Of a stretch of DNA of 60,519 nt, positions 3,159-32,942 are shown in pieces. The notes beneath the pieces are model-generated. The model searched no databases. It was not told the origin of the DNA and was given only the letters and a program-made list of their open reading frames with translations. How positions within the stretch are numbered: the stretch's first letter is position 1; every line of letters starts with the position of its first letter. The stretch is from Planctomycetota bacterium (GTDB taxonomy: Bacteria > Planctomycetota > UBA11346), in assembly GCA_038229115.1 (NCBI GenBank), contig JBBROQ010000001.1:1-60519 (forward strand), written 5' to 3'. The translations under genes and the position numbers were made by a program.

Positions 3159-5375
3159 TCAGCCGAAAATCCGCGCCCCGGTTTGCGCCTTGGTCACCAA
3201 AAGTGTCGCCGGCCGAAAGCGTGGACCGACGCGGTCGGCTAGGCGATTAAGCGTTTCGACCACGTCGCGCACGCCGCGCTGTTCGGCGTAATGCAGCGGT
3301 CCACCGCGGCTCGGCGGGAAACCGGTGCCCATCACCATCGCCAGATCCAACGTGCGCGCGTCGGTGACGATCCCTTCCTCCAAACAGCGCGCGGCTTCGT
3401 TCACCATGATCAGCAAACAGCGATCGAGGATTTCCTGCGCGGTGATGGAACGCGGCGTGATGTGACGCGCGTCGCGCACCTTGGTCACCGCCGACGCGAT
3501 CTCGGGATTCACCGTCGCGGCCGCGCGCCGGCCTTTACCACGGACGTAGAAACCTTTGCGCTCCTTCGCGCCTTTGAGCTTTAATTCTTCGGCGACGACG
3601 CTGAGCACGTCGGCGACATGCATGCGCTCGCCATAGCCGGCCGCGAGAATTTTTGCGACTTTGTAGCCAACATCGATGCCGACTTCATCGGTCAGCGTGA
3701 ACGGCCCCATCGGCAGGCCGAAGTCGAACAGCGCACGATCGATCTGCGCGATCTCGCCGCCTTCCTGCAGCAGCCACGCGGCCTCGTTCAGGTACGGCAG
3801 CAAGATGCGATTGACCAGGAATCCTGGGCAATCCTGCACAATCACCGGGGTCTTGCCCAAGCGCCGGCACAGCGCGACGGTCGCCGCGACGGTCGCGGAA
3901 TCGGTACGCGCACCGGGCACCACTTCGACCAGCGGCATGCGGTTCACCGGATTGAAAAAATGCATGCCGACAAAGCGCTCGGGCTTTTCGAGTGCGCTCG
4001 CCATCGCGGTCACCGACAGCGATGAGGTGTTGCTGGCGATGATCGCGTCCGGCCGAATGTGCCGTTCCAGTTCGGCGAAGACTTTTTGCTTAACGCCCAA
4101 GTCCTCGACCACCGCTTCCACGATCACATCCGCACTCGCGAAGCCGCGAAAGTCGAGCGTGCCGCTGATGCGGTGCAGGCGCAGACTGGCCGCGGCCGGT
4201 GTCAGTTTGCGCCGCTTCACCATCTGCTGATCGTAGTCGTTGGCGGTGTGAAACGCCTTGGCCACCGCGTCCCAACCCAGGTCCTTAACGCGCACCGGAA
4301 TCTCGGCCGCTGCGAATGCCCACGCGATGCCGCCGCCCATCACGCCGGCGCCCAGGACCGCCGCATTGGCGATCGGGTGCGTGGACGCGGTTGGCAACGC
4401 GCTCGGCGAACCCCCCTGTTTTTTCAGCCCTTCGTTGGCGAAAAACAGATCGACCAGATTCTTGCACTGCGCGCTGGGCGCGAGTTCGCTAAAGATCAGC
4501 GCTTCGTAGGTCAGGCCCTGGTCCAGATCCCCGGCGATGGTGTGTGCGACGACTTTCAACGCGCCTTCTGGCGCCGGCATCAAGCCACGCGTTTTCGCGC
4601 GCAGTTGTTTGCGCGCCTGCCGAAACAGCAGCATGCGCCCGAATGGATTGCCTTCAGTCAGCCACGGGCGCGGGCGTTTCGCGCGCTGCGCGGCAATCGC
4701 CGCAACGCCCAGTGGCGTGATAATCGCGGCGACAAACGCCGGCACCTCGTCGCTCAAAAACGCGCGTGCGCAGCACCGATCGGCCAAGCCCAATTTGAAC
4801 GCCTTCGGCCCGTTCACGGTCTTGCCGGACAGAATCAAATCGAGCGCCGCCGCGATCCTGATCAGTCTCGGCAAGCGCTGGGTGCCGCCCCACCCGGGGA
4901 TGATGCCCAGGGTCACTTCCGGCAGGGCCAAACTGGTCTTGTCGGCGTCGGTGACGATGCGGTAAGTGCAGGCGAGCGCGAATTCCAGGCCGCCGCCCAA
5001 ACACGCGCCATCGATCACCGCGACGCTGGGCATCGGCAGATCCGCGACCTGTTGAAACAACTGCTGCCCGGCGCGGGCTTTGGCTTCGGCATCGGCGGGA
5101 ATGGTGATCGCCTCGATCTCGCGGATGTCGGCGCCGGCAATGAAAATCTCGGGCTTAGCGCTGGTGAAAACTACCGCTTTCACATCGGTGCGCGCGGCCA
5201 ACTGGCCCAGCACACTCGATAGTTCAGCGCATACATCCTTGCGGAATTTGTTCACCTTTTCGCCAGGCAGATCGAACACCACCTGCGCGATGCTGTCGAC
5301 CACTGTGAGCGTGAACGCACCAGGAAAACTGGCGCGCAGTTCGTCGAGTTCGCTCATGGTGCCTGCCTTGTTCAT
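3159..5375 (-). CDS. fatty-acid oxidation multifunctional enzyme (enoyl-CoA hydratase / 3-hydroxyacyl-CoA dehydrogenase, FadB/FadJ-like)
   Basis: N-terminal crotonase fold (FIAGADI, ACLGGGLEFALAC). NAD-binding GAGVMGGGIAWAF followed by a 3-HCDH domain. The track ORF extends to 5420. The ATG at 5375 overlaps the thiolase stop (ATGA), so I prefer it; MSELDEL at 5357 is an alternative start. Confidence 0.9.
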   Translation of the reverse strand: MNKAGTMSELDELRASFPGAFTLTVVDSIAQVVFDLPGEKVNKFRKDVCAELSSVLGQLAARTDVKAVVFTSAKPEIFIAGADIREIEAITIPADAEAKARAGQQLFQQVADLPMPSVAVIDGACLGGGLEFALACTYRIVTDADKTSLALPEVTLGIIPGWGGTQRLPRLIRIAAALDLILSGKTVNGPKAFKLGLADRCCARAFLSDEVPAFVAAIITPLGVAAIAAQRAKRPRPWLTEGNPFGRMLLFRQARKQLRAKTRGLMPAPEGALKVVAHTIAGDLDQGLTYEALIFSELAPSAQCKNLVDLFFANEGLKKQGGSPSALPTASTHPIANAAVLGAGVMGGGIAWAFAAAEIPVRVKDLGWDAVAKAFHTANDYDQQMVKRRKLTPAAASLRLHRISGTLDFRGFASADVIVEAVVEDLGVKQKVFAELERHIRPDAIIASNTSSLSVTAMASALEKPERFVGMHFFNPVNRMPLVEVVPGARTDSATVAATVALCRRLGKTPVIVQDCPGFLVNRILLPYLNEAAWLLQEGGEIAQIDRALFDFGLPMGPFTLTDEVGIDVGYKVAKILAAGYGERMHVADVLSVVAEELKLKGAKERKGFYVRGKGRRAAATVNPEIASAVTKVRDARHITPRSITAQEILDRCLLIMVNEAARCLEEGIVTDARTLDLAMVMGTGFPPSRGGPLHYAEQRGVRDVVETLNRLADRVGPRFRPATLLVTKAQTGARIFG

Positions 5376-9816: not shown

Positions 9817-11420
9817 AACGCGAGTTCGCGCGCCTGGACGCGGCCTTCGATCTGCTGGTCATCGGCGGCGGCATCTATGGTGCGTGGATCGCCTACGACG
9901 CAGCGCTGCGCGGTTTGCGCGTGGCGTTGGTCGAACGCGAAGACTGGGGCGCGGGCACCTCCAGCGCCTCGTCGAAACTGATCCACGGCGGCCTGCGCTA
10001 TCTGGAATACGGACGCTTTGGCTTGGTGCGCAAAGCCCTGATCGAACGCCGGCGGTTGCTGCGTCTGGCACCGCATCGGGTGCGGCCACTGCGGTTCCTG
10101 CTGCCGGTGTTCGCCGATGCGCGCGTCAGTTCCTGGCGCCTGCGCCTAGGGCTAACGCTGTACGACCTGCTTGCGGGTCGGCACGCCGGCACGCCACGGC
10201 ACGCTCGCTTTGACGCGGAGCGCATCGGCACGCTCGCACCGTTTCTGGCCGCGTCGGAACTGCGCGCCGGCTTCGCCTATCACGACGCGGTGCATGACGA
10301 CGCGCGCACCACGTTGGAAATCGTCGCCGGCGCGTTGGCCGCCGGCGCGGTCGCAGTGAATCACGCCGCGGCGGTGACGCTGAGCGAACGCGACGGCCGT
10401 GTTACTGGCGCACGTGTGCGCGATGTGCTGAGCGATGCTCAGGTTGAAATTCGCGCGGCCATGACCGTGAATGCCGCTGGTCCTTGGGCGCCGGCGCTTG
10501 CTGGCGGCGCGGCGCCCGCCGTCCGCTTCCCTGGCGTACGTTTCACGAAAGGCGTCCACCTGGTGATGCCGCCACTCGGCCGCGACGACGCGCTGTTGCT
10601 GACTGCGCCGCAAGACGGCCGGGTGTTCTTCCTGATCCCGTGGTACGGCACGACGCTATTGGGCACCACCGACACCGATCATCACGGCGCGCCCGAAACC
10701 GCGGTAATTTCTGCCGCCGACATCGATTATTTGCTGACTGCGGTGAACGCGCGCTGCCCCGGTTTGGCCTGGACGCCTGCCGACATTCGCGGTGCGTTCT
10801 GCGGCCTGCGCACGCTGCAGGCGCAGGCCGGCAAAGGCGCATCAGCAGTGACGCGCGAATGGCTGCTGAGCGAACCGCGCCCCGGCCTGTTGATGCCGAT
10901 CGGCGGCAAGTTCACGTCGGCCCGGGTCGAGGCCGAACTCACCGTCACGCGCGCCTGTGCGGTGGCCGGACGCCACGCGTCACCATCCGAAACCGCGACG
11001 CGCGCTTTTCCGTGGGCGCCAAGCGAACCATGGCCGGAATGGCTGCCGCGCGCGTGCGCGCAGGCCGCGCTGTTGGACATCAACGATACCGATGCACGGG
11101 TGTTGGCAGAACGTCACGGCGCCAATGTCGACACGGTTCTGCGCCTGATCCGTAACGACAAAACCCTTGGCGGGCGGCTGCATCCGGCGTTGCCGTTCCT
11201 GCGCGCCGAGGTCGTCCACGCCGCGCGCGACGAACAGGCGCAGACGCTCATCGATGTGCTGCGCCGGCGACTACCGCTGTTGCTGCTGACGCGCTGGGAT
11301 GACGCCGTGATTGCCGACGCGGCGGCCCTGATGGGCCGCGAATTGGGCTGGGACGCTGCGCACATCAGCGCGGAAATCAGCGCACTACGCACGCAGGATC
11401 GCAACGCGTTGCCCCGCTAA
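9813..11420 (+). CDS. glpD: FAD-dependent glycerol-3-phosphate dehydrogenase
   Basis: DLLVIGGGIYGAWIAYDAALRGLRVALVEREDWGAGTSSASSKLIHGGLRYLE is the GlpD dinucleotide-binding N-terminus. The GTG at 9813 overlaps the GDPD stop (GTGA). The track ORF start at 9507 lies inside the GDPD gene. Confidence 0.88.
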   Translation: MKREFARLDAAFDLLVIGGGIYGAWIAYDAALRGLRVALVEREDWGAGTSSASSKLIHGGLRYLEYGRFGLVRKALIERRRLLRLAPHRVRPLRFLLPVFADARVSSWRLRLGLTLYDLLAGRHAGTPRHARFDAERIGTLAPFLAASELRAGFAYHDAVHDDARTTLEIVAGALAAGAVAVNHAAAVTLSERDGRVTGARVRDVLSDAQVEIRAAMTVNAAGPWAPALAGGAAPAVRFPGVRFTKGVHLVMPPLGRDDALLLTAPQDGRVFFLIPWYGTTLLGTTDTDHHGAPETAVISAADIDYLLTAVNARCPGLAWTPADIRGAFCGLRTLQAQAGKGASAVTREWLLSEPRPGLLMPIGGKFTSARVEAELTVTRACAVAGRHASPSETATRAFPWAPSEPWPEWLPRACAQAALLDINDTDARVLAERHGANVDTVLRLIRNDKTLGGRLHPALPFLRAEVVHAARDEQAQTLIDVLRRRLPLLLLTRWDDAVIADAAALMGRELGWDAAHISAEISALRTQDRNALPR

Positions 11421-16665: not shown

Positions 16666-17520
16666 ATGCGCTTCACGAAAATGCACGGCTGCGGCAACGA
16701 TTACGTCTATGTCGACGCTTGGCGCGAAACCCTGCCCGCAGATCTGCCATCCCTGGCGCAACGCATCAGCGACCGCCACACCGGCATCGGCGCCGATGGC
16801 CTGATCATCGTCGGGCCGTCGGACGTGGCCGATGCGCGCATGACCATGTTCAACGCCGACGGCAGTCAGAGCGAGATGTGCGGCAACGGCTTGCGCTGCG
16901 CCGCGAAACTGGCCTTCGACCATCGTCATGTCCGCGGCCCCGCCCTGCGCGTGGAAACCGGAGCCGGCGTGTTGGACGTGACGTTGCTGATGCAGAAAAA
17001 AGTCTGCGCCGGCGCACAGGTAGTGATGGGCCGACCGCGCCTGACGCCGATCGCGGTGCCGGTCACACATCCCGGACCCGGACCGCGCCTGGAGCTCATG
17101 GTCAGCGTCAACGGCGAGCGACTGCGCCTATTAGCGGTGGGCATGGGCAATCCGCATGCGGTGCTCTTCGTCGATGACCCGGACAGCTTCCCGGTCGCCA
17201 CCGTCGGCCCGCGCCTGGAACACCACCCGCGCTTCCCGCGCCGCACCAATGTCGAATTCGTCGCGCGCCTCGCCGACGAAGCCGGCCTGCCGGTACTGCG
17301 CCAACGCACCTGGGAACGCGGCAGCGGCGAAACCCAAGCCTGCGGCACCGGCGCCTGCGCGACGCTGGTCGCCGCCGTCCTCACCGGCGTAATCCCCGGC
17401 CGCGAAGCCACCATCCGCCTCAACGGCGGCGACCTACACGTACGCTGGGCCCGCGACGACGGCCCGGTGGTGCTGACGGGGCCGGCGGTGGCGGTGTTTA
17501 GCGGCGAGATTGATGACTAA
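16666..17520 (+). CDS. dapF: diaminopimelate epimerase
   Basis: MRFTKMHGCGNDYVYVD, the first catalytic Cys in SEMCGNGLRC and the second in ETQACGTGACA. I prefer the ATG at 16666 over the track GTG at 16627. Confidence 0.93.
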   Translation: MRFTKMHGCGNDYVYVDAWRETLPADLPSLAQRISDRHTGIGADGLIIVGPSDVADARMTMFNADGSQSEMCGNGLRCAAKLAFDHRHVRGPALRVETGAGVLDVTLLMQKKVCAGAQVVMGRPRLTPIAVPVTHPGPGPRLELMVSVNGERLRLLAVGMGNPHAVLFVDDPDSFPVATVGPRLEHHPRFPRRTNVEFVARLADEAGLPVLRQRTWERGSGETQACGTGACATLVAAVLTGVIPGREATIRLNGGDLHVRWARDDGPVVLTGPAVAVFSGEIDD

Positions 17521-17607
17521 CGGACAAGCATCGGCCGGCGCGAGCCAGCATGGTGGGATGATGCGAAAACCACACGTCCAGCGCTAGGAAGCATGCGCTT
17601 GTTAGGC
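17515..17607 (-). repeat. ~90-nt boundary repeat, copy 1 (attC-like candidate: GCCTAAC ... GTTAGTC)
   Basis: Minus strand: GGCCTAACAAGCGCATGCTTCC...GATGCTTGTCCGTTAGTC. It is homologous (about 65-70% by eye) to 28617-28703, including an identical 11-mer cttgttaggcc on the + strand. It is GC-richer than the ORF it follows. The repeat is directly observed; the attC interpretation is tentative. Confidence 0.5.
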
Positions 17608-17610
17608 CGA

Positions 17611-17988
17611 TCACCATCCAAGACTGGTGAAATACCCCCTATAAACGCAAAGACACAGAGCAATCGTAGATATAGCCATCAAAGCTGAGCCAAAGATACG
17701 TACAGAGTGAGTGCTTTTTTTTACAATCATTAGCACGGATAGACCAAGTAAGATTGACGCTAGAAGGTACTGTATCAGGCCAATGGATTCGACTGCTGAT
17801 CGCAGTTGATCGCGCGCCGTGTGTTGAGCTGAAATTCGCCATTTTCCATCTGCGAATGAGCCGTCCAGATTCCTGTCCGTTCTGGGCAAATAGTAGCCGG
17901 CGTTTGCATTTAGTATTTCGATATCTACTGCAATCGAAGAGACCACGATCCCCAATATTGCCAGAATGGCAAGAATGACGTACTTCAT
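17611..17988 (-). CDS. hypothetical small membrane protein (about 3 TM helices)
   Basis: 125-aa AT-rich ORF with hydrophobic segments YVILAILAILGIVVSSIAV, IGLIQYLLASILLGLSVLMIV and IFGSALMAISTIALCLCVY. I recognise no family. Confidence 0.6.
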   Translation of the reverse strand: MKYVILAILAILGIVVSSIAVDIEILNANAGYYLPRTDRNLDGSFADGKWRISAQHTARDQLRSAVESIGLIQYLLASILLGLSVLMIVKKSTHSVRIFGSALMAISTIALCLCVYRGYFTSLGW

Positions 17989-18223
17989 CTCGTAGGCCTA
18001 ACATAAAGCTAAAACGGACCATTTACTTATAATGCAGCATAATGGAACAAGTAGCGTGGTGGGTGATTGGAAAGAGAACAGAGACGTAGCGTGAAGAACT
18101 GAGCGGGACATGGCGCCAGGATTCACTGATAACCTTAGTCCGCGAATTCTTGATTGGAGCTGGGTGACTGGAAAAAATAACACGAAATGGGCTCGTTTTC
18201 AACGTCTGGTTAGTCAATATTTC

Positions 18224-18514
18224 CTATTTATTATAATAATTCCATTGAGTCCGGTGAATCAGCTCTGTGTCAAATGCAATACATGGAAAGTAGAAATAAT
18301 AAAGAAACCTAGAAGGAGAAACACATTCTCCTGATCTTTGAAATATCACAGAAGGACACCATACTTTTTCTTCATGAGACATACTGCGAAACGAAGAAAC
18401 GTACTTTCCTCTAATTGACATTGGAACATAAGAAACAAAATAAATTAAAACCAATGCCCCAAATATTCGATCGACAGATTTATTATTGCAGCAAAGAATA
18501 CGCATAATATTCAC
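18224..18514 (-). CDS. hypothetical small protein (one TM segment)
   Basis: 96-aa AT-rich ORF with a GTG at 18514 or an ATG at 18505. Cys/aromatic-rich. I recognise no family. Confidence 0.4.
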   Translation of the reverse strand: MNIMRILCCNNKSVDRIFGALVLIYFVSYVPMSIRGKYVSSFRSMSHEEKVWCPSVIFQRSGECVSPSRFLYYFYFPCIAFDTELIHRTQWNYYNK

Positions 18515-18532
18515 TAAATGTATTTAGGTATT

Positions 18533-18694
18533 GGCTGACAGTTTATTAGGCGGCGGTGCGCATTTGCGCTGTTGGTACGGACTGCGGTCTATTGCATGCC
18601 ATGATGGCGGCACTATGGAGCACGCGCATGTCAACGTCAACTGTTCGCTCTACAGTTCGTGGTACGTCCGATAGGCGACTGAAGACTGTTGGAA
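18533..18694 (-). repeat. ~160-nt boundary repeat, copy A (attC-like candidate)
   Basis: About 80% identical by eye to 29194-29311 over ~118 nt (cagtttattaggcgg...ggtctattgcatgccat...cacgcgcatg.caacgtcaa). A second conserved block, actg..gttgg, sits at the same distance in both copies (18684-18694 versus 29340-29354). The minus strand ends GCCTAAT-AAACT-GTCAGCC. Confidence 0.6.
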
Positions 18695-18745
18695 TATTTA
18701 CCTTCAAGCTGTTTTACTCCAAGGTGTTTCCATGTTGGCGCTGGC

Positions 18746-19155
18746 TTAGTATCGGCGCCGGATTGAGCGGTTGCTAGAGCGTTTTCCGGGCTGCTGATCT
18801 ACAGCCTTAAACGAAGAAATTAGTACGCCCTCGTTGTCGTGCGCCATAATTATTGCGCAGAACATGTCTATCTCCAATAGGTCTCGTTGCTTTTCCCATA
18901 CTGTTAGATTATTAGATACTTACACAGTATTTCGTATTTTTGACCGTCAATATTTCCAGGCCCCCTCACTGCATTTTCGACGCTCCTTATTCCAGAGCTT
19001 TAGATCCTTTGCAATTATAATGCTCAACCTATAGCGCCGTCGCCTTTCAGATGAGCTGTTGTAGGCGAACATTGAAGTAATCGTGTAATATCGGCAGGAA
19101 TTAACTTCGCGCCCTTGATCCAAAAGCTGACGGTAGATTTTATGATTTTGTGCAT
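18746..19155 (-). pseudogene. DUF4279-like gene disrupted by frameshifts and stops
   Basis: My manual minus-strand translation finds an ATG at 19155 giving MHKIIKSTVSFWIKGAKLIPADITRLLQCSPTTAHLKGDGAIG*. Fragments follow in other frames (KERRKCSEGAWKY*, EIDMFCAIIMAHDNEGVLISS...). The N-terminal pattern and the D-x-FC...N-G motif resemble DUF4279 proteins as I remember them. Confidence 0.5.
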
Positions 19156-21632: not shown

Positions 21633-23099
21633 GTGCTGCGGCCACACTCGTTCGCATCCCCTGGGACTTTTTTCGTGCTGTTCAATTCACTGACCTTTGT
21701 CCTGTTCTTCCTGATCGTCCTGGGCAGTTACCGCCTGATTGGAAATTGGGGCGCGCGCAAGAATCTGCTGTTGGTCGCCAGCTACATTTTTTATGGGGCG
21801 TGGAATCCGCCGTTCGCGCTGCTGTTGTTGCTGTCGACGGTGGTCGATTGGTTGGTGGCCGGGCGGATGGACGCGCAGACCGATCCGGGTCGGCGGCGAG
21901 CTTGGTTGTTGCTGAGCCTGGTGGCCAATTTGGGCATGCTGGGCTTCTTCAAATACGGCGACTTTTTGCTGGCCAATACTGGCGTTCTGCTGGCCGCGAT
22001 GGGCATCCATTATCAGCCGCCGAGCATGGGCATTTTGCTGCCGGTAGGCATCTCGTTCTACACCTTCCACACGCTGTCCTACACCATCGACGTGTATCGA
22101 CGTGAGATCCGGCCGGAGCCTTCGCTGCGTAATTTCGCGCTGTTTGTGTCGTTCTTTCCGCAATTGGTCGCCGGGCCGATCGTGCGCGCGCGCGACTTCC
22201 TGCCGCAGCTACAGACTCCACCGAAGCCCGCGCCGGGACGTTTGGGTTGGGGCCTGTTTTTGATGACGTTGGGCCTGTTCGAAAAAGTGGTGGTCGCGGA
22301 CACGCTGTTGGCGCCGACCGCCGATGCGGTGTTCGGGCATACCTTCCCGCTGCATGCCACTGATGCCTGGGCCGGGGTGCTGGCGTTTGCCTTTCAGATC
22401 CTGTTCGACTTCGGCGGCTATTCCCTGTGCGCGATCGGCGCCGACCTGTGTTTCGGATTTCACATCCTCGACAATTTTCGTTTCCCCTACGCCGCGATTG
22501 GGTTTTCGGACTTCTGGCGGCGCTGGCACATTTCGCTGTCGAGCTGGCTGCGCGACTACCTGTACATTCCGCTCGGCGGGAATCGTCACGGCGGTGTGCG
22601 CACCGGCGTGAACATCATGGTGGTGATGTTGCTGGGCGGGCTGTGGCACGGCGCGGCGTGGACCTTTGTGGTCTGGGGCGGGCTGCATGGACTGTTCCTG
22701 TTGGCCGAGCGCGGGGTGCGCTGCGTGGTCGGCGACGCGGCCTGGGCCAACACCCGCGGCGCGGCATTTGTTGGCTGGGCCGTGACCTTTCTGGGCCTCT
22801 GCATCACCTGGGTATTTTTCCGCTCGGGCAGTTTTGGCGCGGCGATGAAAAACTTGGCCAGCATGGCCGGCGCGTTCGGCGCCGAGGGCGATCAAATCCT
22901 GAGCACGCGCGCGCTGTTGCAGGTTGGCGCGGTGGTGGTGATCGTGTTGTTGGTCCACGCCCGCCTGCGCAAAAGCAGCTTAGAAGCCGCGGTTTCGACT
23001 TGGCCGACGTGGTTAGTGACGGTGGCCTGGATCGCCATGGGCGCGGCGATTCTGCTCGCGCAGGGCAACGGCAGTGCGTTCATCTATTTCCAGTTCTGA
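21633..23099 (+). CDS. membrane-bound O-acyltransferase (MBOAT; AlgI/DltB family)
   Basis: Polytopic protein with the conserved FWRRWHISLSSWLRDYLYIPLGGNR motif containing the catalytic His. GC-rich. The likely true start is the GTG at 21675 (VLFNSLTFVLFF). Confidence 0.9.
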   Translation: MLRPHSFASPGTFFVLFNSLTFVLFFLIVLGSYRLIGNWGARKNLLLVASYIFYGAWNPPFALLLLLSTVVDWLVAGRMDAQTDPGRRRAWLLLSLVANLGMLGFFKYGDFLLANTGVLLAAMGIHYQPPSMGILLPVGISFYTFHTLSYTIDVYRREIRPEPSLRNFALFVSFFPQLVAGPIVRARDFLPQLQTPPKPAPGRLGWGLFLMTLGLFEKVVVADTLLAPTADAVFGHTFPLHATDAWAGVLAFAFQILFDFGGYSLCAIGADLCFGFHILDNFRFPYAAIGFSDFWRRWHISLSSWLRDYLYIPLGGNRHGGVRTGVNIMVVMLLGGLWHGAAWTFVVWGGLHGLFLLAERGVRCVVGDAAWANTRGAAFVGWAVTFLGLCITWVFFRSGSFGAAMKNLASMAGAFGAEGDQILSTRALLQVGAVVVIVLLVHARLRKSSLEAAVSTWPTWLVTVAWIAMGAAILLAQGNGSAFIYFQF

Positions 23100-23108
23100 G
23101 GGCCAACC

Positions 23109-24206
23109 ATGCGCTCACTTTCTTCTGCCTCAGCCACCACTGCCACTGCCTTCCAACGCCCGATCCCGGCCCTGTCCTGGACCGCTCTTGCCTCCATCAC
23201 CGCGATCGCGTTGGTGCTGTTGGTGGCCGCCTGGGAACGGCACTGCCGCGCCATCGGCTATGCGCCGGGCCTGGACGACACCAGCGATTTGTGGGTCGAA
23301 CAACGCCGTAGCGTGCGCCCCGACGAAACCGTCATCATCGGCGCCTCGCGCGGACTGTACGGCCTTGATTTGGATGAGCTGGAATCGGCCCTCGGGCGCC
23401 GGCCGGTGCAGCTGTGCTTGGTCGGGTCCTGCGTGTATCCGATCCTTCAGGACTTCGCCGATGACGCGTCGTTTCATGGCACCGTGATTTGCGACCTGGT
23501 GCCGGGACTGTTGTTGGTGCCGCCGATGGCGCCGCCCTACCACAACGCTGAAAAAGCGCTGGAGCGCAAGCGCACGCAAAGCCTCACGCAGCGCGCCAGC
23601 CACCTGCTGTCGCTGCCGCTCGAACGGACCTTCGCCTGTCTGCAAATGGACGATCTCACCCTGGCCGACCTGTTGCGTGACCTGCGCATTCCCAATCGTG
23701 CCCACGCGCAATTAGGCGCGGCCCTGCCGCCTTATTTTGGCCGCATCGATCGCGACCGCCGCACCTGGATGATCGACCGCGTGCAGACCGACGCCGCGCT
23801 GCGCGATCGGATCCAACGCGGCTGGATCCCGCTGTTCTCACCACCGCCGAAACCGCACTGGATCCCGGATCAGGCCTTCGGCGCCTACATGCACGCCATG
23901 GTCGACGGCCGCTTCGCCGCCATGGCCAAGGCCGTCGACACCATCCGCCAACGCGGCGGCAAAGTCGTCTTCCTACGCATGCCCTCTACCGGCGACCTGC
24001 GCGTGGTCGAAGACCGCCTCAGCCCGCGCACCGAGGTCTGGGACCGGCTGTTGCGCGAAGCCAACGCCCCCGGCGTGTACGCCGAGGATCACCCCGAACT
24101 GTGCGGCTTCGATATTCCCGAATCATCGCATTTGAGCGCCACGGCTTCGGTGGAGTTTACCCGCCAATTGGCGCCGTATATTCGCACGGCGCTGGCCGCG
24201 CACTGA
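23109..24206 (+). CDS. hypothetical membrane-anchored protein, probable partner of the MBOAT enzyme
   Basis: 365 aa, GC-rich, starting 10 nt after the MBOAT stop. It has one N-terminal TM segment (WTALASITAIALVLLVAAW). I recognise no family; its position corresponds to AlgJ/DltD-type partners. Confidence 0.6.
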   Translation: MRSLSSASATTATAFQRPIPALSWTALASITAIALVLLVAAWERHCRAIGYAPGLDDTSDLWVEQRRSVRPDETVIIGASRGLYGLDLDELESALGRRPVQLCLVGSCVYPILQDFADDASFHGTVICDLVPGLLLVPPMAPPYHNAEKALERKRTQSLTQRASHLLSLPLERTFACLQMDDLTLADLLRDLRIPNRAHAQLGAALPPYFGRIDRDRRTWMIDRVQTDAALRDRIQRGWIPLFSPPPKPHWIPDQAFGAYMHAMVDGRFAAMAKAVDTIRQRGGKVVFLRMPSTGDLRVVEDRLSPRTEVWDRLLREANAPGVYAEDHPELCGFDIPESSHLSATASVEFTRQLAPYIRTALAAH

Positions 24207-25209: not shown

Positions 25210-25554
25210 TTATACGTCAAATGCGAGGCGAATTCCGTTATCGACGGAAAACAGCAGTGCCGGATCCAGTTCACAGACAAAGTCCGATATTCTGGTTTTA
25301 TTAATGGTTAGAATCTGCGAAACATTGATAACGCTGTCTTTGGCTAATCCGGACTCTTCGTGTTTTACCAATACATTGCCGGGGGCTTTGGCCAAAGCCA
25401 CGTTCGTCGTTAGCATTGCGACCATTACCGTGGGTATTGAACTGGCATTAAAAAGATCCGACTGGATTATCATAACCGGGCGTCTGTCACCCGGCTCATT
25501 CCCAATTGGGCTATCCAGATTTGCCCAATACACTTCTCCGCGCCTCATTTCCAA
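25210..25554 (-). CDS. type II toxin, MazF/PemK family endoribonuclease
   Basis: RRGEVYWANLDSPIGNEPGDRRPVMIIQSDLFN...TVMVAMLTTN...DSVINVSQILTINKTRI matches the PemK/MazF fold pattern. Confidence 0.9.
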   Translation of the reverse strand: MEMRRGEVYWANLDSPIGNEPGDRRPVMIIQSDLFNASSIPTVMVAMLTTNVALAKAPGNVLVKHEESGLAKDSVINVSQILTINKTRISDFVCELDPALLFSVDNGIRLAFDV

Positions 25555-25781
25555 TCATTCCCAGGCAAATCAGCAATCCCGGCCGATTCAAATGCGGTGT
25601 CAATAGCCACAGATGACGAATACACCTTATTTAATTGATCGGTAATTCCATGGTCGCCTTCCTTCTCAACATACCATCGAATGGCATTCGTATAAAATTC
25701 GCTTCTGCTCATCTTTTTGCGACGCTGAATCCGCTCCGCGGCTTGAAAGACGCTGTCTGGCAGTGATATTGCAGTCTTCAT
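25545..25781 (-). CDS. ribbon-helix-helix (CopG/MazE-like) antitoxin
   Basis: 78 aa. MKTAISLPDSVFQAAERIQRRKKMSRSEFYTNAIRWYVEK has the RHH strand-helix-helix pattern. It overlaps the toxin start by 10 nt. Confidence 0.8.
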   Translation of the reverse strand: MKTAISLPDSVFQAAERIQRRKKMSRSEFYTNAIRWYVEKEGDHGITDQLNKVYSSSVAIDTAFESAGIADLPGNDWK

Positions 25782-25854
25782 GTTTGGAGTATGACCGGTT
25801 ATACCAGTCGATCAAGCATGCGCTCACCCTTGTTGAAAGCACCCCGATGTTTGG

Positions 25855-26006
25855 GAGCGGCCGCTGTGCGAAGCCAATGGCCAGTTGTATTCACTTAGGA
25901 TTACGAGAACCTGTGCGATTTCGACATCCCCGAATGGTCGTATTTGAGCGTCACGTCTTCGGTGGAATTTAACCGCCAATTGGCGCCATATATTCACGCG
26001 GCGCTG
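25855..26006 (+). pseudogene. diverged, frameshifted duplicate of the 3' end of the 23109..24206 gene
   Basis: Aligns with 24050-24200 at about 80% identity by eye. For example, ...cgaatggtcgtatttgagcgtcacgtcttcggtggaatttaaccgccaattggcgccatatattcacgcggcgctg aligns with ...cgaatcatcgcatttgagcgccacggcttcggtggagtttacccgccaattggcgccgtatattcgcacggcgctg. It encodes LCDFDIPEWSYLSVTSSVEFNRQLAPYIHAAL versus LCGFDIPESSHLSATASVEFTRQLAPYIRTAL, with a 1-nt indel and a TAG upstream. Confidence 0.8.
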
Positions 26007-27349: not shown

Positions 27350-27772
27350 TATTACGATTAGAATGCCAATGCCGCAGGAAATAAAAGCGTTCCTCGCGTG
27401 TTATCCAATTTCCAAAAAGTAGTTATCGTCTTTTATTCGGGTCATTTGGGTCTGTCCAACGACAAAGATCACAGTGGCCGGCCAAACAAGCTAGCTGAAA
27501 TAGAAGCAAGTATGTTACGAACTCCTGTGCATCACCTCGTTGGACCGCAATTTTATTGTTTAAAGACACCATATTTGTATTACAAGTTTAATTTATTATA
27601 TTTTAAGGAATCATGTACAAAAGATTTCTTAAATAACATCGCTGCGCTTAGGCAATTTTTATTTACCCCATTTGCTAACATAAAGGCAAGGGGGAATGTG
27701 GCCGAAACAACGCTAGACGCGCTGAGTGCCCATGGGGCAATTGGAAGGGCGGTGGGGGTTGGCGATTCGGCG

Positions 27773-28405
27773 TCACATTCTCCCTTTCAGCGACTGGCTA
27801 GGCTGTTTAATGACTTCAGTTATTATTAATTTTTCTTGCGTACATTTAAGAATATCAGCAATTTCTTTAATTTTCGGCCTAACCCATCGGTGATCTGCGG
27901 TAATTTGCCATAGGATCGGAATGAGCCTGTCCCTGGATTCAATGAATACTACTCTCATTCCCTTTCTGTTCAGTCCATTCTTTGCAGTAAAATACACATC
28001 GCGCAAATTTGATACCTCTGTTATTTCAATTTCATCACCATTGTAACTCGTTAATCTTTCATTTATAATAACATATGGTTTCATGGCGATCTGAGTCTTA
28101 TTAATTCTATGTAATATTACACAGAATGACACAGAGGAAAGCAAAGCGCCAGGGGCAATATAATATAAAGACTCACGATCTTTCCAGTAAACAAGGGCAA
28201 CGATAATAATATAAATAAAGCCCGCCCATACACATGTGGTCTTTATTGGAATTGGCGGCAGATCAATGGATATCGTCCCATCTTGGGTTTTATTGATACG
28301 AACATTTGATGAAATTACAGCGGGCCAAGCTTTGAATTTTAAATATTTTAGGATTTCTTCGCTGTTATTCATTAGCGAAGCCCAACGTGGTGTATCGATT
28401 AACAT
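27773..28405 (-). CDS. hypothetical membrane protein (two TM helices plus a C-terminal soluble domain)
   Basis: 210 aa and AT-rich. TM hairpin CVWAGFIYIIIVALVYW / YYIAPGALLSSVSFCVILH followed by a ~110-aa domain. The architecture is reminiscent of bacterial PH (YdbS/T-like) proteins, but this is a guess. Confidence 0.55.
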   Translation of the reverse strand: MLIDTPRWASLMNNSEEILKYLKFKAWPAVISSNVRINKTQDGTISIDLPPIPIKTTCVWAGFIYIIIVALVYWKDRESLYYIAPGALLSSVSFCVILHRINKTQIAMKPYVIINERLTSYNGDEIEITEVSNLRDVYFTAKNGLNRKGMRVVFIESRDRLIPILWQITADHRWVRPKIKEIADILKCTQEKLIITEVIKQPSQSLKGRM

Positions 28406-28616
28406 AAGTGGATATCATTAGGTCAACTATTTTTATCTTAAATATTGTACGATTGGATTCATCAGAATTTATATTTTCAAGATGTCGGTCCAACATCAGA
28501 GAGCACCGTGACCATGCCCGACTGCCGTGGATCGCGCGGAAATCGTGGGTAGCAATTGGAACGATGGCTAGCGGAGCGTCAAGAACTGAGCGGCGGAACA
28601 GATCCCATCCTGAGCC

Positions 28617-28703
28617 ATTAAACCAGGCTGCCGCGAATTCTTGACCATAGCGGTGGGCGGGAACGAACACGTCATGGGCTCCGGTGCATCGACTTGTTAG
28701 GCC
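28617..28703 (-). repeat. ~90-nt boundary repeat, copy 2 (attC-like candidate: GCCTAAC ... GTTTAAT)
   Basis: Minus strand: GTGGCCTAACAAGTCGATGCACCGGAGCCCATGACGTGT...TTCGCGGCAGCCTGGTTTAAT. The GCCTAAC contains the TAA stop of the 163-aa ORF. Homologous to 17515-17607. Confidence 0.5.
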
Positions 28704-29188
28704 ACTTTTTCTATGATAATTGCATCATTATTGTCTTTATCCAAATATCGTTTTACCATGTAATTCCCATTGGGTCTATTTTTCAACAACAATAAAGTCG
28801 GAGATGAGCCATTAACGCTTTTGATTACATCATGGATTTTAGTTGGTGATCCATCTAATGGGAGTATTGCCAACGTTCCGCTATCTGACCCCAAAGGCCA
28901 ATGATTCGGATTTAATGATTTTCCAGTTATGGAATCACTTGAACCAATAAAAATATCACCCATCGATTCTACAACGGAACCTTCGCTGGTAATATCGACT
29001 ATCACTCCGCGTTTCTCTATAAACTTATAAACGTCGCATTGGTCGTCATTAAAGACATCGTCTAAATTGATAGGATCGCATATTAATATTTTACCATCTT
29101 TAACATTTATCGTTTCGTCACCGAAACCAACGCATGACAATTCTTCTTGTTTATCACATTGTGATATAATATATGTTTTTGTATTCAT
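28697..29188 (-). CDS. hypothetical acidic soluble protein (immunity-protein-like flavour, unassigned)
   Basis: 163 aa and very AT-rich, with no TM segment. It is bracketed by an 11-nt perfect inverted repeat, tgttaggccac (28694-28704) and gtggcctaaca (29191-29201). Confidence 0.6.
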   Translation of the reverse strand: MNTKTYIISQCDKQEELSCVGFGDETINVKDGKILICDPINLDDVFNDDQCDVYKFIEKRGVIVDITSEGSVVESMGDIFIGSSDSITGKSLNPNHWPLGSDSGTLAILPLDGSPTKIHDVIKSVNGSSPTLLLLKNRPNGNYMVKRYLDKDNNDAIIIEKVA

Positions 29189-29193
29189 TTGTG

Positions 29194-29354
29194 GCCTAAC
29201 AGTTTATTAGGCGGTTGTCCGCATTTTCGCTGTTGGCAAGGACTGTGGTCTATTGCATGCCATCATGGCATGCACTGTGGTACACGCGCATGGCAACGTC
29301 AATACTTCGCTCCCTTTCATAGAGAAAACTCGGGAACGACACTGCTGGTTGGCG
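29194..29354 (-). repeat. ~160-nt boundary repeat, copy B (attC-like candidate)
   Basis: The minus strand starts CGCCAAC (29354-29348) and ends GCCTAAT-AAACT-GTTAGGC (29200-29194), 5 nt before the ATG of the 163-aa ORF. It contains the perfect palindrome gcatgccat-c-atggcatgc (29255-29273). About 80% identical to copy A. Confidence 0.6.
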
Positions 29355-29419
29355 AAAGAATTATCTTCCCGTCATTTTATGTCGTGGCTCTGCAAGTCGG
29401 CGCAGGCCGAGTATCGGCG

Positions 29420-31486
29420 TCAGCGTTTCCCGCGTCCCCGCCGGTGACCTTTCGGGCGGCCGCGGGCGGGCGCGGTTTCGGCGGGTGCGCTGCCGTCGGC
29501 TTCGATGCGCTTGATTTGATCGCGTAGGCGGGCGGCTTCTTCGAAGCGCAGTTCTTCGGCGGCGGCGACCATGCGGGTGGTTAGGTCTGCGATGTCGGCA
29601 GTGGTCACGCGCGGGGCATCGCCGCCGGCGTCGTAGCCGCTGCCGGTGGGTTCGGCGACGCGACGGGCTTTGATTTGTTCGGCGAAGGTGTGGGCGGTGT
29701 CTTGCTTGGTCGCGGTGCGCGGGGTGATGCCGTGCTCGGTGTTGTAGGCGATTTGATACGCGCGGCGGCGGTCGGTTTCGCCTAACGCTGCGCGCATCGC
29801 AGCGGATTCGCCGTCGGCGTACAAGATCACTTGGCCGCTGACGTGGCGCGCGGCGCGGCCGATGGTTTGGATCAGCGAGGTCTGCGAGCGCAGGAAGCCT
29901 TCTTTGTCGGCGTCGAAGATCACCACCAACGAAACCTCCGGTAAATCCAGGCCTTCGCGCAGCAGGTTGACGCCGATCAGGCACTGCGTTTCGCCTTGGC
30001 GCAGGGCGTTCAGAATTTCGATGCGCTCGATCGCGTCGATGTCGCTGTGCAGGTACGTGGTGCGCACGCCGGCCTCGCTCAGGAATTCGGCCAGGTCTTC
30101 GGCCAGGCGTTTGGTCAGCGTGGTGACCAACGTGCGTTCGTTGCGCAGGCAGCGCGTGGTGACTTCGCGGATCAGGTCTTCGACTTGGCCGCTGGTCGGA
30201 CGCACGCTGACCGGCGGGTCGATGATGCCGGTCGGGCGCACCAATTGCTCGGCACGCATGGTTTCGTGTTTTGCTTCATAGGCGCCGGGCGTGGCCGAAA
30301 CGAAAACCATCTGTTTTACCAACGTTTCCCATTCAGCGAATTGCAGCGGTCGGTTGTCGAGCGCGCTGGGCAGGCGGAAGCCGTGCTGCACCAGGGTTTC
30401 TTTCCGGCTGCGATCGCCGGCGTACATACCGCCGATTTGCGGGACGGTGACGTGGCTTTCGTCGATCACGCACAGGAAGTCGGGCGGAAAAAAGTCGTAC
30501 AGACAGTACGGTCGCTCGCCGGGTTTGCGGCCGGTCAGATGCCGGGTGTAATTCTCGATGCCGCTGCAATAGCCGACCTCGCGCATCATTTCCAAATCGT
30601 AGAGCGTGCGCGAGCGCAGCCGCTGCGCTTCCAACAGCGCGTTCTGATTCATCAGCTCGCGGTAACGCTCTTCCAGTTCCGCTTCGATGGTCAGACAGGC
30701 GCCGGCCAGGGTTTGTTCTTCGACCACAAAGTGCTTCGCCGGGTAGATGTTCATGCTCTCATGCCGGCCCAGAACTTCGCCGGTAAGCGTGTGCACGGTG
30801 GCGATTTCTTCGACCTCGTCGCCGAAGAACGACACCCGAATCGCGGTGTCGTCATAGGCCGGCCACAGCTCGACCACATCGCCGCGCACCCGGAATTTGC
30901 CGCGTTGGAAGTTCAGATCACCGCGGTTGTATTGGATATTCAGCAGCGACAGCAGGAACGCATTGCGCTCCAAGGCCAAGCCGACGTGCAGCGAGACGGT
31001 CAGATCCTGATACGAATTCGGTGAACCCAGGCCGTAGATCGACGACACCGACGCAACGATTAGGACATCGCGCCGCGACAGCAGCGAGCGCGTTGCTGAC
31101 AAACGCAATTTGTCGATTTCCTCGTTGATTTGCGATTCTTTTTCGATGTAGAGGTCTTTGCCGGGCATATACGCCTCGGGCTGATAATAGTCGTAATAAC
31201 TGACGAAATATTCGACCGCGTTATGCGGGAAGAAGCCTTTGAACTCGCTATACAGCTGCGCCGCGAGGGTCTTGTTGTGACTGAGCACCAGCGTCGGTCG
31301 TTGCAGATTCGCGACCACGTTGGCGATGGTGAAGGTCTTGCCGCTGCCGGTCACGCCCAACAGCGTCGGCGCGCGCTGACCCTCCAGTAAAGCTGCGGTC
31401 AGGGCCGCAATTGCCTGCGGCTGATCGCCCATCGGCGGATAGGGCGCGACCAGTTGGAAACCCGCGGCGGTGTCGAGCGATGGCAT
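29420..31486 (-). CDS. uvrB: excinuclease ABC subunit B
   Basis: MPSLDTAAGFQLVAPYPPMGDQPQAIAAL...LLGVTGSGKTF (Walker A), the helicase motifs and a C-terminal UVR domain (ELRFEEAARLRDQI). I use the ATG at 31486; the track ORF is over-extended to 32209. Confidence 0.95.
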   Translation of the reverse strand: MPSLDTAAGFQLVAPYPPMGDQPQAIAALTAALLEGQRAPTLLGVTGSGKTFTIANVVANLQRPTLVLSHNKTLAAQLYSEFKGFFPHNAVEYFVSYYDYYQPEAYMPGKDLYIEKESQINEEIDKLRLSATRSLLSRRDVLIVASVSSIYGLGSPNSYQDLTVSLHVGLALERNAFLLSLLNIQYNRGDLNFQRGKFRVRGDVVELWPAYDDTAIRVSFFGDEVEEIATVHTLTGEVLGRHESMNIYPAKHFVVEEQTLAGACLTIEAELEERYRELMNQNALLEAQRLRSRTLYDLEMMREVGYCSGIENYTRHLTGRKPGERPYCLYDFFPPDFLCVIDESHVTVPQIGGMYAGDRSRKETLVQHGFRLPSALDNRPLQFAEWETLVKQMVFVSATPGAYEAKHETMRAEQLVRPTGIIDPPVSVRPTSGQVEDLIREVTTRCLRNERTLVTTLTKRLAEDLAEFLSEAGVRTTYLHSDIDAIERIEILNALRQGETQCLIGVNLLREGLDLPEVSLVVIFDADKEGFLRSQTSLIQTIGRAARHVSGQVILYADGESAAMRAALGETDRRRAYQIAYNTEHGITPRTATKQDTAHTFAEQIKARRVAEPTGSGYDAGGDAPRVTTADIADLTTRMVAAAEELRFEEAARLRDQIKRIEADGSAPAETAPARGRPKGHRRGRGKR

Positions 31487-31631
31487 GCCGCCAGCGTTGG
31501 CGCGGGTCGCACGCGGCAAGCACGGCGGCCACACAGCCGCGGGCCGACGACGGCCCCTGCGGTTGTGCCGCAGGCAAGGCCGCCAAACTGCGGCCCTTCT
31601 CCGCGGCAGTTGCTGCACAAAGGAATCCGCC

Positions 31632-32942
31632 ATGGCACCCAGGCCCCCGTCCCGTCGCGATCGCGCGCAATCCTCACGCAAACCAGCATCGAGTTCGGTC
31701 AGTGAAGACGCTGAGATCAGCGATGTCGAGGTCGTGATGCCCGGGCGTACGGATTCGGAAGTTGGCGGCGACGCCTTGGGCGACGACGTGAGCGACGACG
31801 CGCAAGCGATGCCGTCGGATACCGCCACTGCCGATCCGATCTCGTCCGATGCCGAAGTCGGCGCGATCAGCCGCACCCCGCGCCGTGGCGCGGACAAGGC
31901 CGCCAGCAGCACCGGCAGCCAGCGCAGTTCCCGCCGCGACCAACGCGCTGCTTCCTCAGCCAAAAATGATCGCGTGTCGCGCAAGAAAACCGTGGTCTCG
32001 GTGGCGCTGACGCCCGCGCAGCTGAAGCAGCGCGCGGCCGCCCGGCGTTTCGGCCGCAACCTGGCCATCGGCATCGTGCTGCTGATGGTCGGCGCGGTGG
32101 CGCTGTGGTGGTTCGTGCTGCGCATCGACAAGGTCGAGGCCGACGCGATCGGCCGTCTGGCGTCGGTTAACGCCAATGTCAGCACCATCACGCAAAACCT
32201 GCGCAACAAGAACGCGGCTGCCGCCCAGATCGCTTACGATGAAGCGCAGAAGACCCTCGAAGGCCTCGACCCGCAGCAGCGCGTCGAACTGGCGGCGAAA
32301 AAGTCTGAGGTGCTCGAAACCCTCAAGACGCTGAACGAGGAAATCGAGCACGTCCGCCGCGATGAAAGAGTCGCCGGCAACCGGCAACGGCTGCTGGATC
32401 AGTTCGCCAAGCTGCTCGATCCCACCACTGATCTCGACAAGTTGGAAGGCGACGCGAAGAAGTTCCTCGACAATCCGGTCACTGCCGATGGCGCCCGTAG
32501 CGAAGCCTTCGCTACCGACTACGCCGGCGAAGCCAACGCAGTCAAAGTGCAGATGCAGAACCTGGCCAGCGAACGCGTGCGGCGGTTGGCGGCGAGCACC
32601 ACCGATCCGGTGTCGCAGGTGCAGGGCGCCACTGAAAACCTGGTGAAACAGGAGAAATTTGGGGAGGCTTTGGCGATGATCGATGAAACCGCGCGGAAAT
32701 TTCCAGACGCCAAATTGGAGCCGGTCCGCGGCTACGTCACCGAAGCCGCGGCGCAGCAATGGACCGCGGTCGAAGGCTTCATTGCGGCCAAACTGGCCGA
32801 CGTCAACGCGATCGGCTCGACCATCGCCGCGCGCAAATCCGCCGTGGCTCAGGCCCAGGCCCGGTTGAAGTCAGTGATCGACACTTTCGGCATCGAGAGC
32901 TACGTCAGCCAAGCGAAGGCGCTGCTGGCTAAGTTCCCGTAA
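31632..32942 (+). CDS. hypothetical membrane-anchored protein with a disordered acidic/Ser-rich N-terminus and a helical C-terminal domain
   Basis: ATG at 31632 (MAPRPPSRRD), one TM segment (LAIGIVLLMVGAVALWWFVL) and a long predicted-helical periplasmic part. Divergent from uvrB. Confidence 0.65.
   Translation: MAPRPPSRRDRAQSSRKPASSSVSEDAEISDVEVVMPGRTDSEVGGDALGDDVSDDAQAMPSDTATADPISSDAEVGAISRTPRRGADKAASSTGSQRSSRRDQRAASSAKNDRVSRKKTVVSVALTPAQLKQRAAARRFGRNLAIGIVLLMVGAVALWWFVLRIDKVEADAIGRLASVNANVSTITQNLRNKNAAAAQIAYDEAQKTLEGLDPQQRVELAAKKSEVLETLKTLNEEIEHVRRDERVAGNRQRLLDQFAKLLDPTTDLDKLEGDAKKFLDNPVTADGARSEAFATDYAGEANAVKVQMQNLASERVRRLAASTTDPVSQVQGATENLVKQEKFGEALAMIDETARKFPDAKLEPVRGYVTEAAAQQWTAVEGFIAAKLADVNAIGSTIAARKSAVAQAQARLKSVIDTFGIESYVSQAKALLAKFP

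Follow-up and report, generated by a model that had tools for sequence, protein, structure and literature searches.

We analyzed a 60,519-nt stretch of the chromosome of an uncultured Planctomycetota bacterium (GenBank assembly GCA_038229115.1, contig JBBROQ010000001.1, positions 1 to 60,519), hereafter called the window. Two convergent host genes, dapF and uvrB, flanked a region (17.6-29.2 kb) that was mostly 40-48% GC, compared with about 65% in the host genome. Most of the open reading frames (ORFs) in this region were small, lay on a single strand and had no family match. At the dapF end, positions 17515-18002 contained an ORF of 125 amino acids (orf125) bracketed by inverted motifs of the integron core type. 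A preliminary description, made from the sequence alone, had taken this unit for the terminal cassette of an integron array abutting dapF.

The dapF gene (diaminopimelate epimerase; 16666-17520, plus strand) was confirmed by a match to PF01678 (E 6e-57), and the motifs and orf125 all lay where the preliminary description had placed them. On the minus strand, GTTAGGC (18002->17996) was followed by C, TACGAG and the ATG of orf125 at 17988. The ORF (17611-17988) ran to a TGA at 17611, after which came TC, G, GCCTAAC (17607->17601), about 80 nt and GTTAGTC (17521->17515). The TTA in the last motif is complementary to the TAA (17518-17520) that terminates dapF. The same junction was present in an independent 1956-nt Logan assembly (SRR19962015), which corresponded to 19420->17465 with 99.95% identity.

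The last two motifs formed the R'' box (GCCTAAC) and the R' box (GTTAGTC) of a 94-nt attC-type site of short form, designated A (17515-17608, minus strand), and the dapF stop codon overlapped its R' box. Both the AAC and the GTT triplets were present. Position 6 of the R' box was a T and not a purine, so that GTTAGTC, claimed earlier as a core, had the GTT triplet and did not fit GTTRRRY strictly; yet the same R' box was found in one metagenome member of the family described below (contig L110). Crossover at A would take place at G|TT between 17521 and 17520, exactly past the dapF stop codon. Judging from the R' positions of A and of the site upstream, the orf125 gene cassette, by the integron definition, would span 17521-18001 (minus strand, 481 nt), beginning with TTAGGCC... 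behind the G|TT of the upstream site and finishing with the G in A's R' box.

The 7-mer alone was weaker evidence, as had been cautioned. Eight copies were observed in the window versus 3.2 expected, and core genes contained copies too. The 8-mer GGCCTAAC was more telling. It occurred five times versus 0.97 expected, a count reached in 1 of 100 shuffles, and all five copies were confined to 17.6-29.2 kb, between dapF and uvrB. The upstream core at 17996-18002 turned out to belong to a long-form attC-type site of 220 nt, designated X (17996-18215, minus strand), in which it is the R' box and GACTAAC (18215->18209) the R'' box. The copy reported at 28.6 kb was likewise an attC-type site, B (28488-28703, minus strand), as far as its nature was concerned; it was a long form of 216 nt, however, and resembled A over the first 43 nt or so only. 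X and B, both about 218 nt long, showed patchy sequence likeness, matching ends and compensating changes in their stems.

A search pattern taken from the center of X and B (CAAGAATTCGCGG, 25-45 nt, CCGCTCAGTTCTT) matched at least 120 metagenome contigs. Many of these contained two to six copies on the same strand, 500-800 nt apart, with ORFs between them. An alignment of 42 non-redundant metagenome elements with X and B (44 sequences) gave a consensus of about 215 nt, GGCCTAAC-AAGTC-(L'' arm)-...-(L' arm)-TTTGAC-GTTAGGC. The conservation was bounded exactly by the outer GCCTAAC and GTTAGGC, and start codons often lay 10-30 nt past the 3' 7-mer.

When the 44 sequences were analyzed with RNAalifold and by explicit counting of pairs, an R''/R' helix and an L''/L' helix emerged (columns 8-11/230-233 and 21-35/208-220), and the spacers, 5 and 6 nt long, were unpaired. 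In the L''/L' helix, 11 of the 12 pairs had changed on both sides. Paired cells amounted to 96.1%, versus 87.2% in shuffles (none of 500 as high) and 28-42% when the partners were slid by one to three columns. After trimming of the alignment, 16 of 22 pairs had changed on both sides; the covariation score was 0.374, versus 0.125 in shuffles (again none of 500 as high) and at most 0.10 in the slid controls. The L'' arm had two positions, on the top strand a G and an A, that were unpaired throughout the family and also in A. They are candidates for the extrahelical bases that set strand choice in attC sites, and they lie on the arm reported to bear such bases in classical attC sites (Bouvier 2009). 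The architecture was R''-5 nt-L''...L'-6 nt-R' with bulged bases on a single arm. As described by Cury et al. (2016, PMC4889954), attC sites have the order R''-spacer-L''...L'-spacer-R'.

A profile hidden Markov model (HMM) was built from the 42 metagenome elements, without any window sequence, and run with nhmmer. It recovered X (18214->17996, hmm 3-216 of 217, E 1.5e-29) and B (28702->28488, hmm 2-216, E 3e-54). Along its entire length, X shared 79% identity with a site in L159, and B was 88-91% identical to sites in L143, L112, L177, L159 and L189. The arm duplex of X gave z scores of -2.2 to -2.6, and the bottom-strand fold of B a z score of -2.9. The matches to the short sites covered their first part: 17607->17565 in A (hmm 2-44, E 0.043) and 27545->27502 (hmm 2-45, E 0.023) in D, a 93-nt site at 27454-27546 (minus strand).

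A covariance model, R1, was made from 30 metagenome sites and 22 pairs, also without window sequence, and was run over the whole window with the filters off. A was its second-best match in the window (17608->17514, 28.1 bits, E 6e-6) and was aligned over model positions 1-87 of 87. This score was about 10 bits over all background: elsewhere in the window the model scored no higher than 13.6 bits, and in 96 kb of relatives' GC-rich DNA no higher than 18.2 bits (about 150 kb in total). Sites in metagenome arrays outside the R1 training set scored 23-57 bits; many of them were 92-95 nt long, and classes of about 60, 93 and 133 nt were seen. A score of 28.1 bits against a background maximum of 18.2 bits, within the range of these other real sites, indicated that A was a genuine family member. 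Together with the nhmmer match of X, this full-length match supported the proposal of a terminal cassette abutting dapF.

Site D was the best-formed site of the window (R1 42.8 bits, E 1.6e-10; arm duplex z -4.1, p 0.001). Its minimum free energy structure was the canonical hairpin of R stem, unpaired central spacer and L stem. Since D is 93 nt long and folds into such a clean hairpin, the short form appeared to be a natural class. A position weight matrix of the family 3' end (13+7 nt) ranked 27454-27460 of D first, B second and the GTTAGTC of A third among 120,996 positions.

Pairing between the ends of the 93-nt stretch had been claimed in the preliminary description. This held in the family register given by the R1 alignment, in which 17 of the 22 pairs of A were canonical and the unpaired G and A of the family were retained; of the five broken pairs, one was in the R box and four were in the L stem. 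It did not hold in plain folding or in arm-duplex shuffles. A reading of A as a mere 5' fragment of a long-form site was at first favored, on the basis of an arm z score of +0.1, a fold z score of about 0 and the nhmmer match to hmm 2-44. It was withdrawn because of the natural 93-nt form of D, the third rank of A with the weight matrix and the end-to-end R1 match. The models therefore support A as a genuine, low-scoring and probably somewhat eroded short-form attC.

The arrays in the metagenome contigs had the organization of integron cassettes. The L100 array contained six sites and five ORFs of 112-163 amino acids, all on the array strand and each beginning shortly past an R' box. Sites and ORFs alternated in L100, L154 and L160. 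Within the same arrays (L089-L208), the sites fell into size classes of about 60, 93, 133, 215 and 262-266 nt. The long forms differed from the short form by an added conserved module at the center, in which the motif TTCCAATTGCC and a hairpin that did not vary (CAAGAATTCGCGG..CCGCTCAGTTCTTG) were present.

Integrase fragments were found beside such arrays. Those in L176 and L134 matched TIGR02249 best (E 3e-21 and 1e-29), far above XerC/D. The IntI1 query used in the searches was validated by its matches in L134 and L176. In five contigs, a single attI-like junction (...TTAACTGTTGGGC) led into four different cassettes. The array organization, the TIGR02249 fragments beside the arrays and the common attI-like junction indicated that the family belongs to real integrons. 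About 405 nt beside the attI junction were common to L176, L179, L185, L155, L189 and L193. Beyond these, an integrase fragment was present in L176 only, and L193 shared about 100 nt more. This may reflect breaks in the assemblies at that point, or platforms may commonly lack the integrase. A cassette leader, (G)TTGGGCAGACCCGAA.., followed the attI in L176 and attC sites in L127, L132 and L199. The leader after site D of the window (TTGGACAGACCCAAATGACCCGAA) was similar to it.

In the window, the sites and ORFs formed two runs on the minus strand. One consisted of an element U (29419->29193), orf163, B, orf210, C, an interval without an ORF, and D. The other consisted of an element U2 (18757->18530), orf96, X, orf125, A and then dapF. 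X and A were about 390 nt apart, and B, C and D were mutually within 1.3 kb. The preceding cassette ORF, orf96 (18224-18514 in the ORF list, minus strand), lay between U2 and X. The orf163 cassette (28697-29188, minus strand) was closed by B.

U (29193-29419, minus strand), the head of the second array, began right after the uvrB stop codon and ended in GCCTAA-TAAACT-GTTAGGCC (L box, spacer, R box), with the first cassette directly next to it. U2 (18530-18757, minus strand) was a degenerate second copy that ended in CCTAATAAACTGTCAGCC, its R box reading GTCAGCC. Each was about 230 nt long, and they were 85% identical over 117 nt. The last 16 nt or so of U resembled the attI junction (..CAATTAACTGTTGGGC) of five metagenome contigs, among them L176 with its integrase fragment. 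We infer that U is a candidate attI and U2 a candidate attI that may be dead. A promoter scan produced a sigma-70-like match in U2 only, TTGACG-17-CATAGT (18640->18612), facing the cassettes. An exact search of the JGI metagenomes with a 21-mer from the core of U gave no match, and U, U2 and A had no BLAST match in the 120 family contigs; for the U elements, homologs were found nowhere outside the window. U also contained a perfect 21-nt palindrome, TGCATGCCATGATGGCATGCA (29254-29274).

The remaining sites were less well preserved. Site C (27675-27804, minus strand, about 130 nt) had an R'' box mutated to GCCTAGC and contained the stop codon of orf210. It was matched by nhmmer in two parts, 27751->27675 (hmm 138-214, E 0.12) at the 3' side and 27803->27771 (hmm 2-34, E 1.7) at the 5' side, and its arm duplex had a z score of -2.4. 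The C-D interval (27547-27674, minus strand) had no ORF of at least 50 amino acids on the array strand and may be a cassette without an ORF. Two weak candidates, F (20255->20167, just upstream of orf289) and G (26874->26771, between orf132 and orf173), both on the minus strand, each scored 14.3 bits (E 0.12), which by score alone is within noise. Their 3' ends were homologous to each other, with R' boxes mutated to GCTGGG, that is, with GCT instead of GTT.

These results led us to interpret 17515-18002 as, very probably, the distal gene cassette of an integron-type array without a nearby integrase gene. On the minus strand, the cassette would begin at the G|TT in X's R' box. It would carry one promoterless and presumably expressed gene for a small conserved membrane protein, and it would be closed by its own 94-nt short-form attC, A, whose R' box, GTTAGTC, contains the three bases complementary to the stop codon of dapF. 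By analogy with characterized integrons, IntI would recombine the folded single-stranded attC hairpin at G|TT. The parts of the hairpin recognized would be the R''/R' and L''/L' stems, the unpaired central spacer and the extrahelical bases. Cassettes would have entered at an attI-type site, for which U and U2 are the local candidates. The DNA past the last attC, here the end of dapF, would then be the original right flank of the insertion site. At present, mobility would be restricted to cassettes with intact flanking sites and would require an integrase from another part of the genome.

At least two attC sites lay less than 4 kb apart, and the window contained no integron integrase. A group of clustered attC sites without an integron integrase is called a CALIN (Cury et al. 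2016, PMC4889954). The absence of intI within 60.5 kb made this locus a CALIN and not a complete integron. The array looks old and decaying, since no intI was present in 60.5 kb, 5 of the 22 pairs of A were broken, U2, C and the weaker candidates F and G had lost the invariant GTT/AAC triplet, and a duplicated gene fragment as well as GC-rich genes of host type lay amid the region.

Several observations weigh against this interpretation. A tyrosine recombinase was not detected in the 60.5-kb window by tblastn with IntI1 (best E 0.44). The profile of the L176-type attI did not match U or U2, the homology being limited to about 16 nt, and two attI-like heads in one locus are not the textbook layout. 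Plain folding and arm-duplex shuffles of A were not significant (z -1.1 to +0.1), and its sequence-only match was marginal (E 0.043) and covered the first 43 nt alone. R1 itself was derived from long-form sites minus the central 140 columns or so, and the calibration of its E-values is only rough. GC-rich, host-like genes (MBOAT and orf365) lay in the middle of the region. The nearest relatives, with 79% identity in dapF and 80% in UvrB, are too distant to show presence or absence of the cassettes. In view of the composition-only folding tests, the palindrome expected of an attC was found in A in the model-based sense only.

A different history of the cassettes is possible, though we consider it doubtful. 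An integrase acting in trans could have put the orf96 and orf125 cassettes into a secondary site of the attG type (G|WT) at the dapF stop codon. There would have been no entry at attI, and U2 would be borne by a cassette or unrelated. The crossover inferred between 17521 and 17520 leaves dapF intact, no intI is nearby, and IntI-mediated insertion at GWT sites, with the resulting small CALIN or single attC sites lacking an integron integrase (SALIN), is documented (bioRxiv 10.1101/2022.09.11.507474; PMC4889954). Ordinary insertion at attI, however, likewise results in a terminal attC next to the DNA that had originally been the right flank. Because the right flank looks the same after either event, the dapF junction cannot separate the two histories. 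Both arrays, on the other hand, were headed by homologous U elements, with a simple site of L box, spacer and R box and then the first cassette, and an attI head fits this better. The reading with cassettes entering at attI-type sites can also be extended to an attC superfamily with size classes, in which a conserved module of about 125-170 nt took the place of the terminal structure in the long forms, and the U elements are attI-like landing pads at the uvrB and dapF stop codons served by an integrase encoded elsewhere. We regard this extension as improbable. On this view, attC loops of the long forms could have received the module as an insert with a function or mobility of its own; it might bind a host factor or regulator, act as an insulator or terminator, or be a miniature element targeting attC.

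Readings that do not involve integrons fared worse. The sites might be repeats resembling miniature inverted-repeat transposable elements (MITE) or repetitive extragenic palindromes (REP), with terminal inverted repeats (GGCCTAAC/GTTAGGCC) that are attC-like on the surface, the intervening ORFs being ordinary genes of an island. The conserved central module of the long forms, their length beyond that of classical attC sites and the lack of an integrase in the window would agree with such repeats. They would not be expected to form same-strand arrays with one ORF per interval, to have stems that covary while the sequence drifts, or to show the R''-5 nt-L''...L'-6 nt-R' layout with bulges on one arm only. 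The arrays moreover adjoin integron-integrase fragments and a common attI junction, and direct reading of the sequence showed no direct repeats (target-site duplications) flanking X or B. We therefore judged this explanation very unlikely. It is still harder to credit that the 7-mers around orf125 are coincidental and that the ORF just belongs to a low-GC island gained by horizontal transfer. The occurrence of the 7-mers in core genes and the failure of the 94-nt stretch to fold better than shuffles would allow it. The enrichment of the 8-mer and its confinement to the island speak against it, as do independent models that put A (28.1 bits) and X (E 1.5e-29) in a family of hundreds of sites, far over background. 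A reading of the inverted 8-mers as Xer/dif modules, for which no formal dif search was made, was dropped in favor of attC on account of the hairpin covariation and the linkage to integron integrases.

Chromosomal integrons can carry sedentary arrays with homogeneous attC families, such as the Vibrio cholerae repeats (VCR) and the Xanthomonas arrays. The window resembled these in having a lineage-typical attC family with a strong consensus, in its chromosomal position beside housekeeping genes, and in the long arrays of small ORFs without known function and the toxin-antitoxin cassettes. It differed from them in the lack of an integrase and in the discrete size classes of its attC family. Sedentary chromosomal arrays are known in several phyla, including Planctomycetota (PMC8618304). 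As in other CALIN, the cassettes were small, on the same strand and mostly without known function, with neither intI nor a recognizable intI pseudogene nearby. The origins proposed for CALIN (loss of intI, rearrangement, insertion at secondary sites) are all compatible with the locus. Unlike other CALIN, it kept two homologous candidate attI-like heads, U and U2, without an integrase. It also had GC-rich host-like genes interleaved and mutated core triplets in several sites, so that the decay was visible.

The variable terminal structure of attC sites is reported as 20-100 nt (Cury et al. 2016, PMC4889954). In the long forms of the present family it exceeded 150 nt, beyond this range. A hybrid between the R' box of the terminal attC and host DNA at G|TT, without an integrase platform, is shared with SALIN and attG insertions (bioRxiv 10.1101/2022.09.11.507474). 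These contain a single isolated cassette, unlike the several cassettes and the attI-like head found here. Covariance models of attC sites specific to taxa, including one for Planctomycetes, have been made (Ghaly et al. 2021, PMC8352920). In both cases the attC sites of one lineage were alike enough in sequence and structure to be modeled and to assign cassettes to taxa; the Planctomycetes class of that work may or may not be the family of the window or cover its long forms.

The product of orf125 is a small membrane protein, as had been proposed; it has three hydrophobic segments, and AlphaFold2 gave a three-helix model (predicted local distance difference test score, pLDDT, 80). It had also been called an orphan, which proved wrong, as 12 homologs were found (E down to 7e-31). 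Their alignment had 19 invariant columns, and the family motifs were RIE.LN, AGYYLPR, GKWR.S, PRDQLR, GLLQY and a C-terminal YRGYFTSLGW. Searches of Pfam, NCBIfam and PADLOC with orf125 gave no match, and the AlphaFold2 model had no fold match in the PDB. Exact-protein look-ups with dapF and orf163 returned no match, and orf125 matched a contig of the same organism only.

One homolog, P0004 (49% identity), was a cassette in the L086 array, whose attC sites were of a different type, about 125 nt long, with arm pairing z scores of -4 to -8.6. Another, P0002, was on contig L082, which carries C-terminal fragments of IntI. The genes for P0005 and P0007 had no adjoining sites of the attC family of the window. 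L082 contained two of the IntI fragments (3540-3831 and 10891-11141), up to 75% identical to residues 287-330 of IntI1. A hairpin, TCCG(C/A)ATAAAACCG..CGGTTTTATACGGA, followed each of them.

The closest relatives of the dapF product had at most 79% identity, and the best UvrB match had 80%. At the loci of these relatives the neighbors downstream of dapF differed, and no U or attC was found downstream of uvrB. The C-terminus of the dapF product reads ..GEIDD* in the window versus ..GEW(xx)* in relatives; this divergence may or may not be tied to the cassette junction. The uvrB reading frame (29420-32209, minus strand) continues without a stop for 241 codons upstream of the start that is conserved (31486, MPSLDT..); the gene was recorded as encoding 688 amino acids.

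Between the two low-GC patches lay genes for an MBOAT acyltransferase and a protein of 365 amino acids (21633-24206, plus strand) with a host-like GC content at third codon positions of 0.80. The 3' end of orf365 (24026-24194) was duplicated at 25839-26006 with 77-82% identity. A MazF/PemK toxin gene and an upstream antitoxin ORF were located at 25210-25781 (minus strand). Their homologs in metagenome contig L121 (37% and 35% identity) lay between two attC sites, and the pair in the window is therefore probably a toxin-antitoxin cassette. Rfam searches of the window, at the gathering threshold and at E up to 5, and tRNA and tmRNA scans gave no match. This indicated that the repeats are not a known RNA and that the island does not lie at a tRNA gene.

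The cassette interpretation explains the 12-kb low-GC patch between two housekeeping genes as accessory DNA derived from an integron, and it gives the orf125 family the context of mobile cassettes. Taken by itself, the locus is an ordinary CALIN in decay, which would not surprise specialists. The mobile-gene structure is of a known kind, and the family of recombination sites to which it belongs is large and little described. This attC family, recovered from public metagenomes, has strong covariation support and members of up to about 265 nt. The default attC size limit of IntegronFinder is 200 nt. If this limit holds, long-form arrays would be detected too rarely, and estimates of how diverse integrons are in Planctomycetota and similar phyla would be biased.

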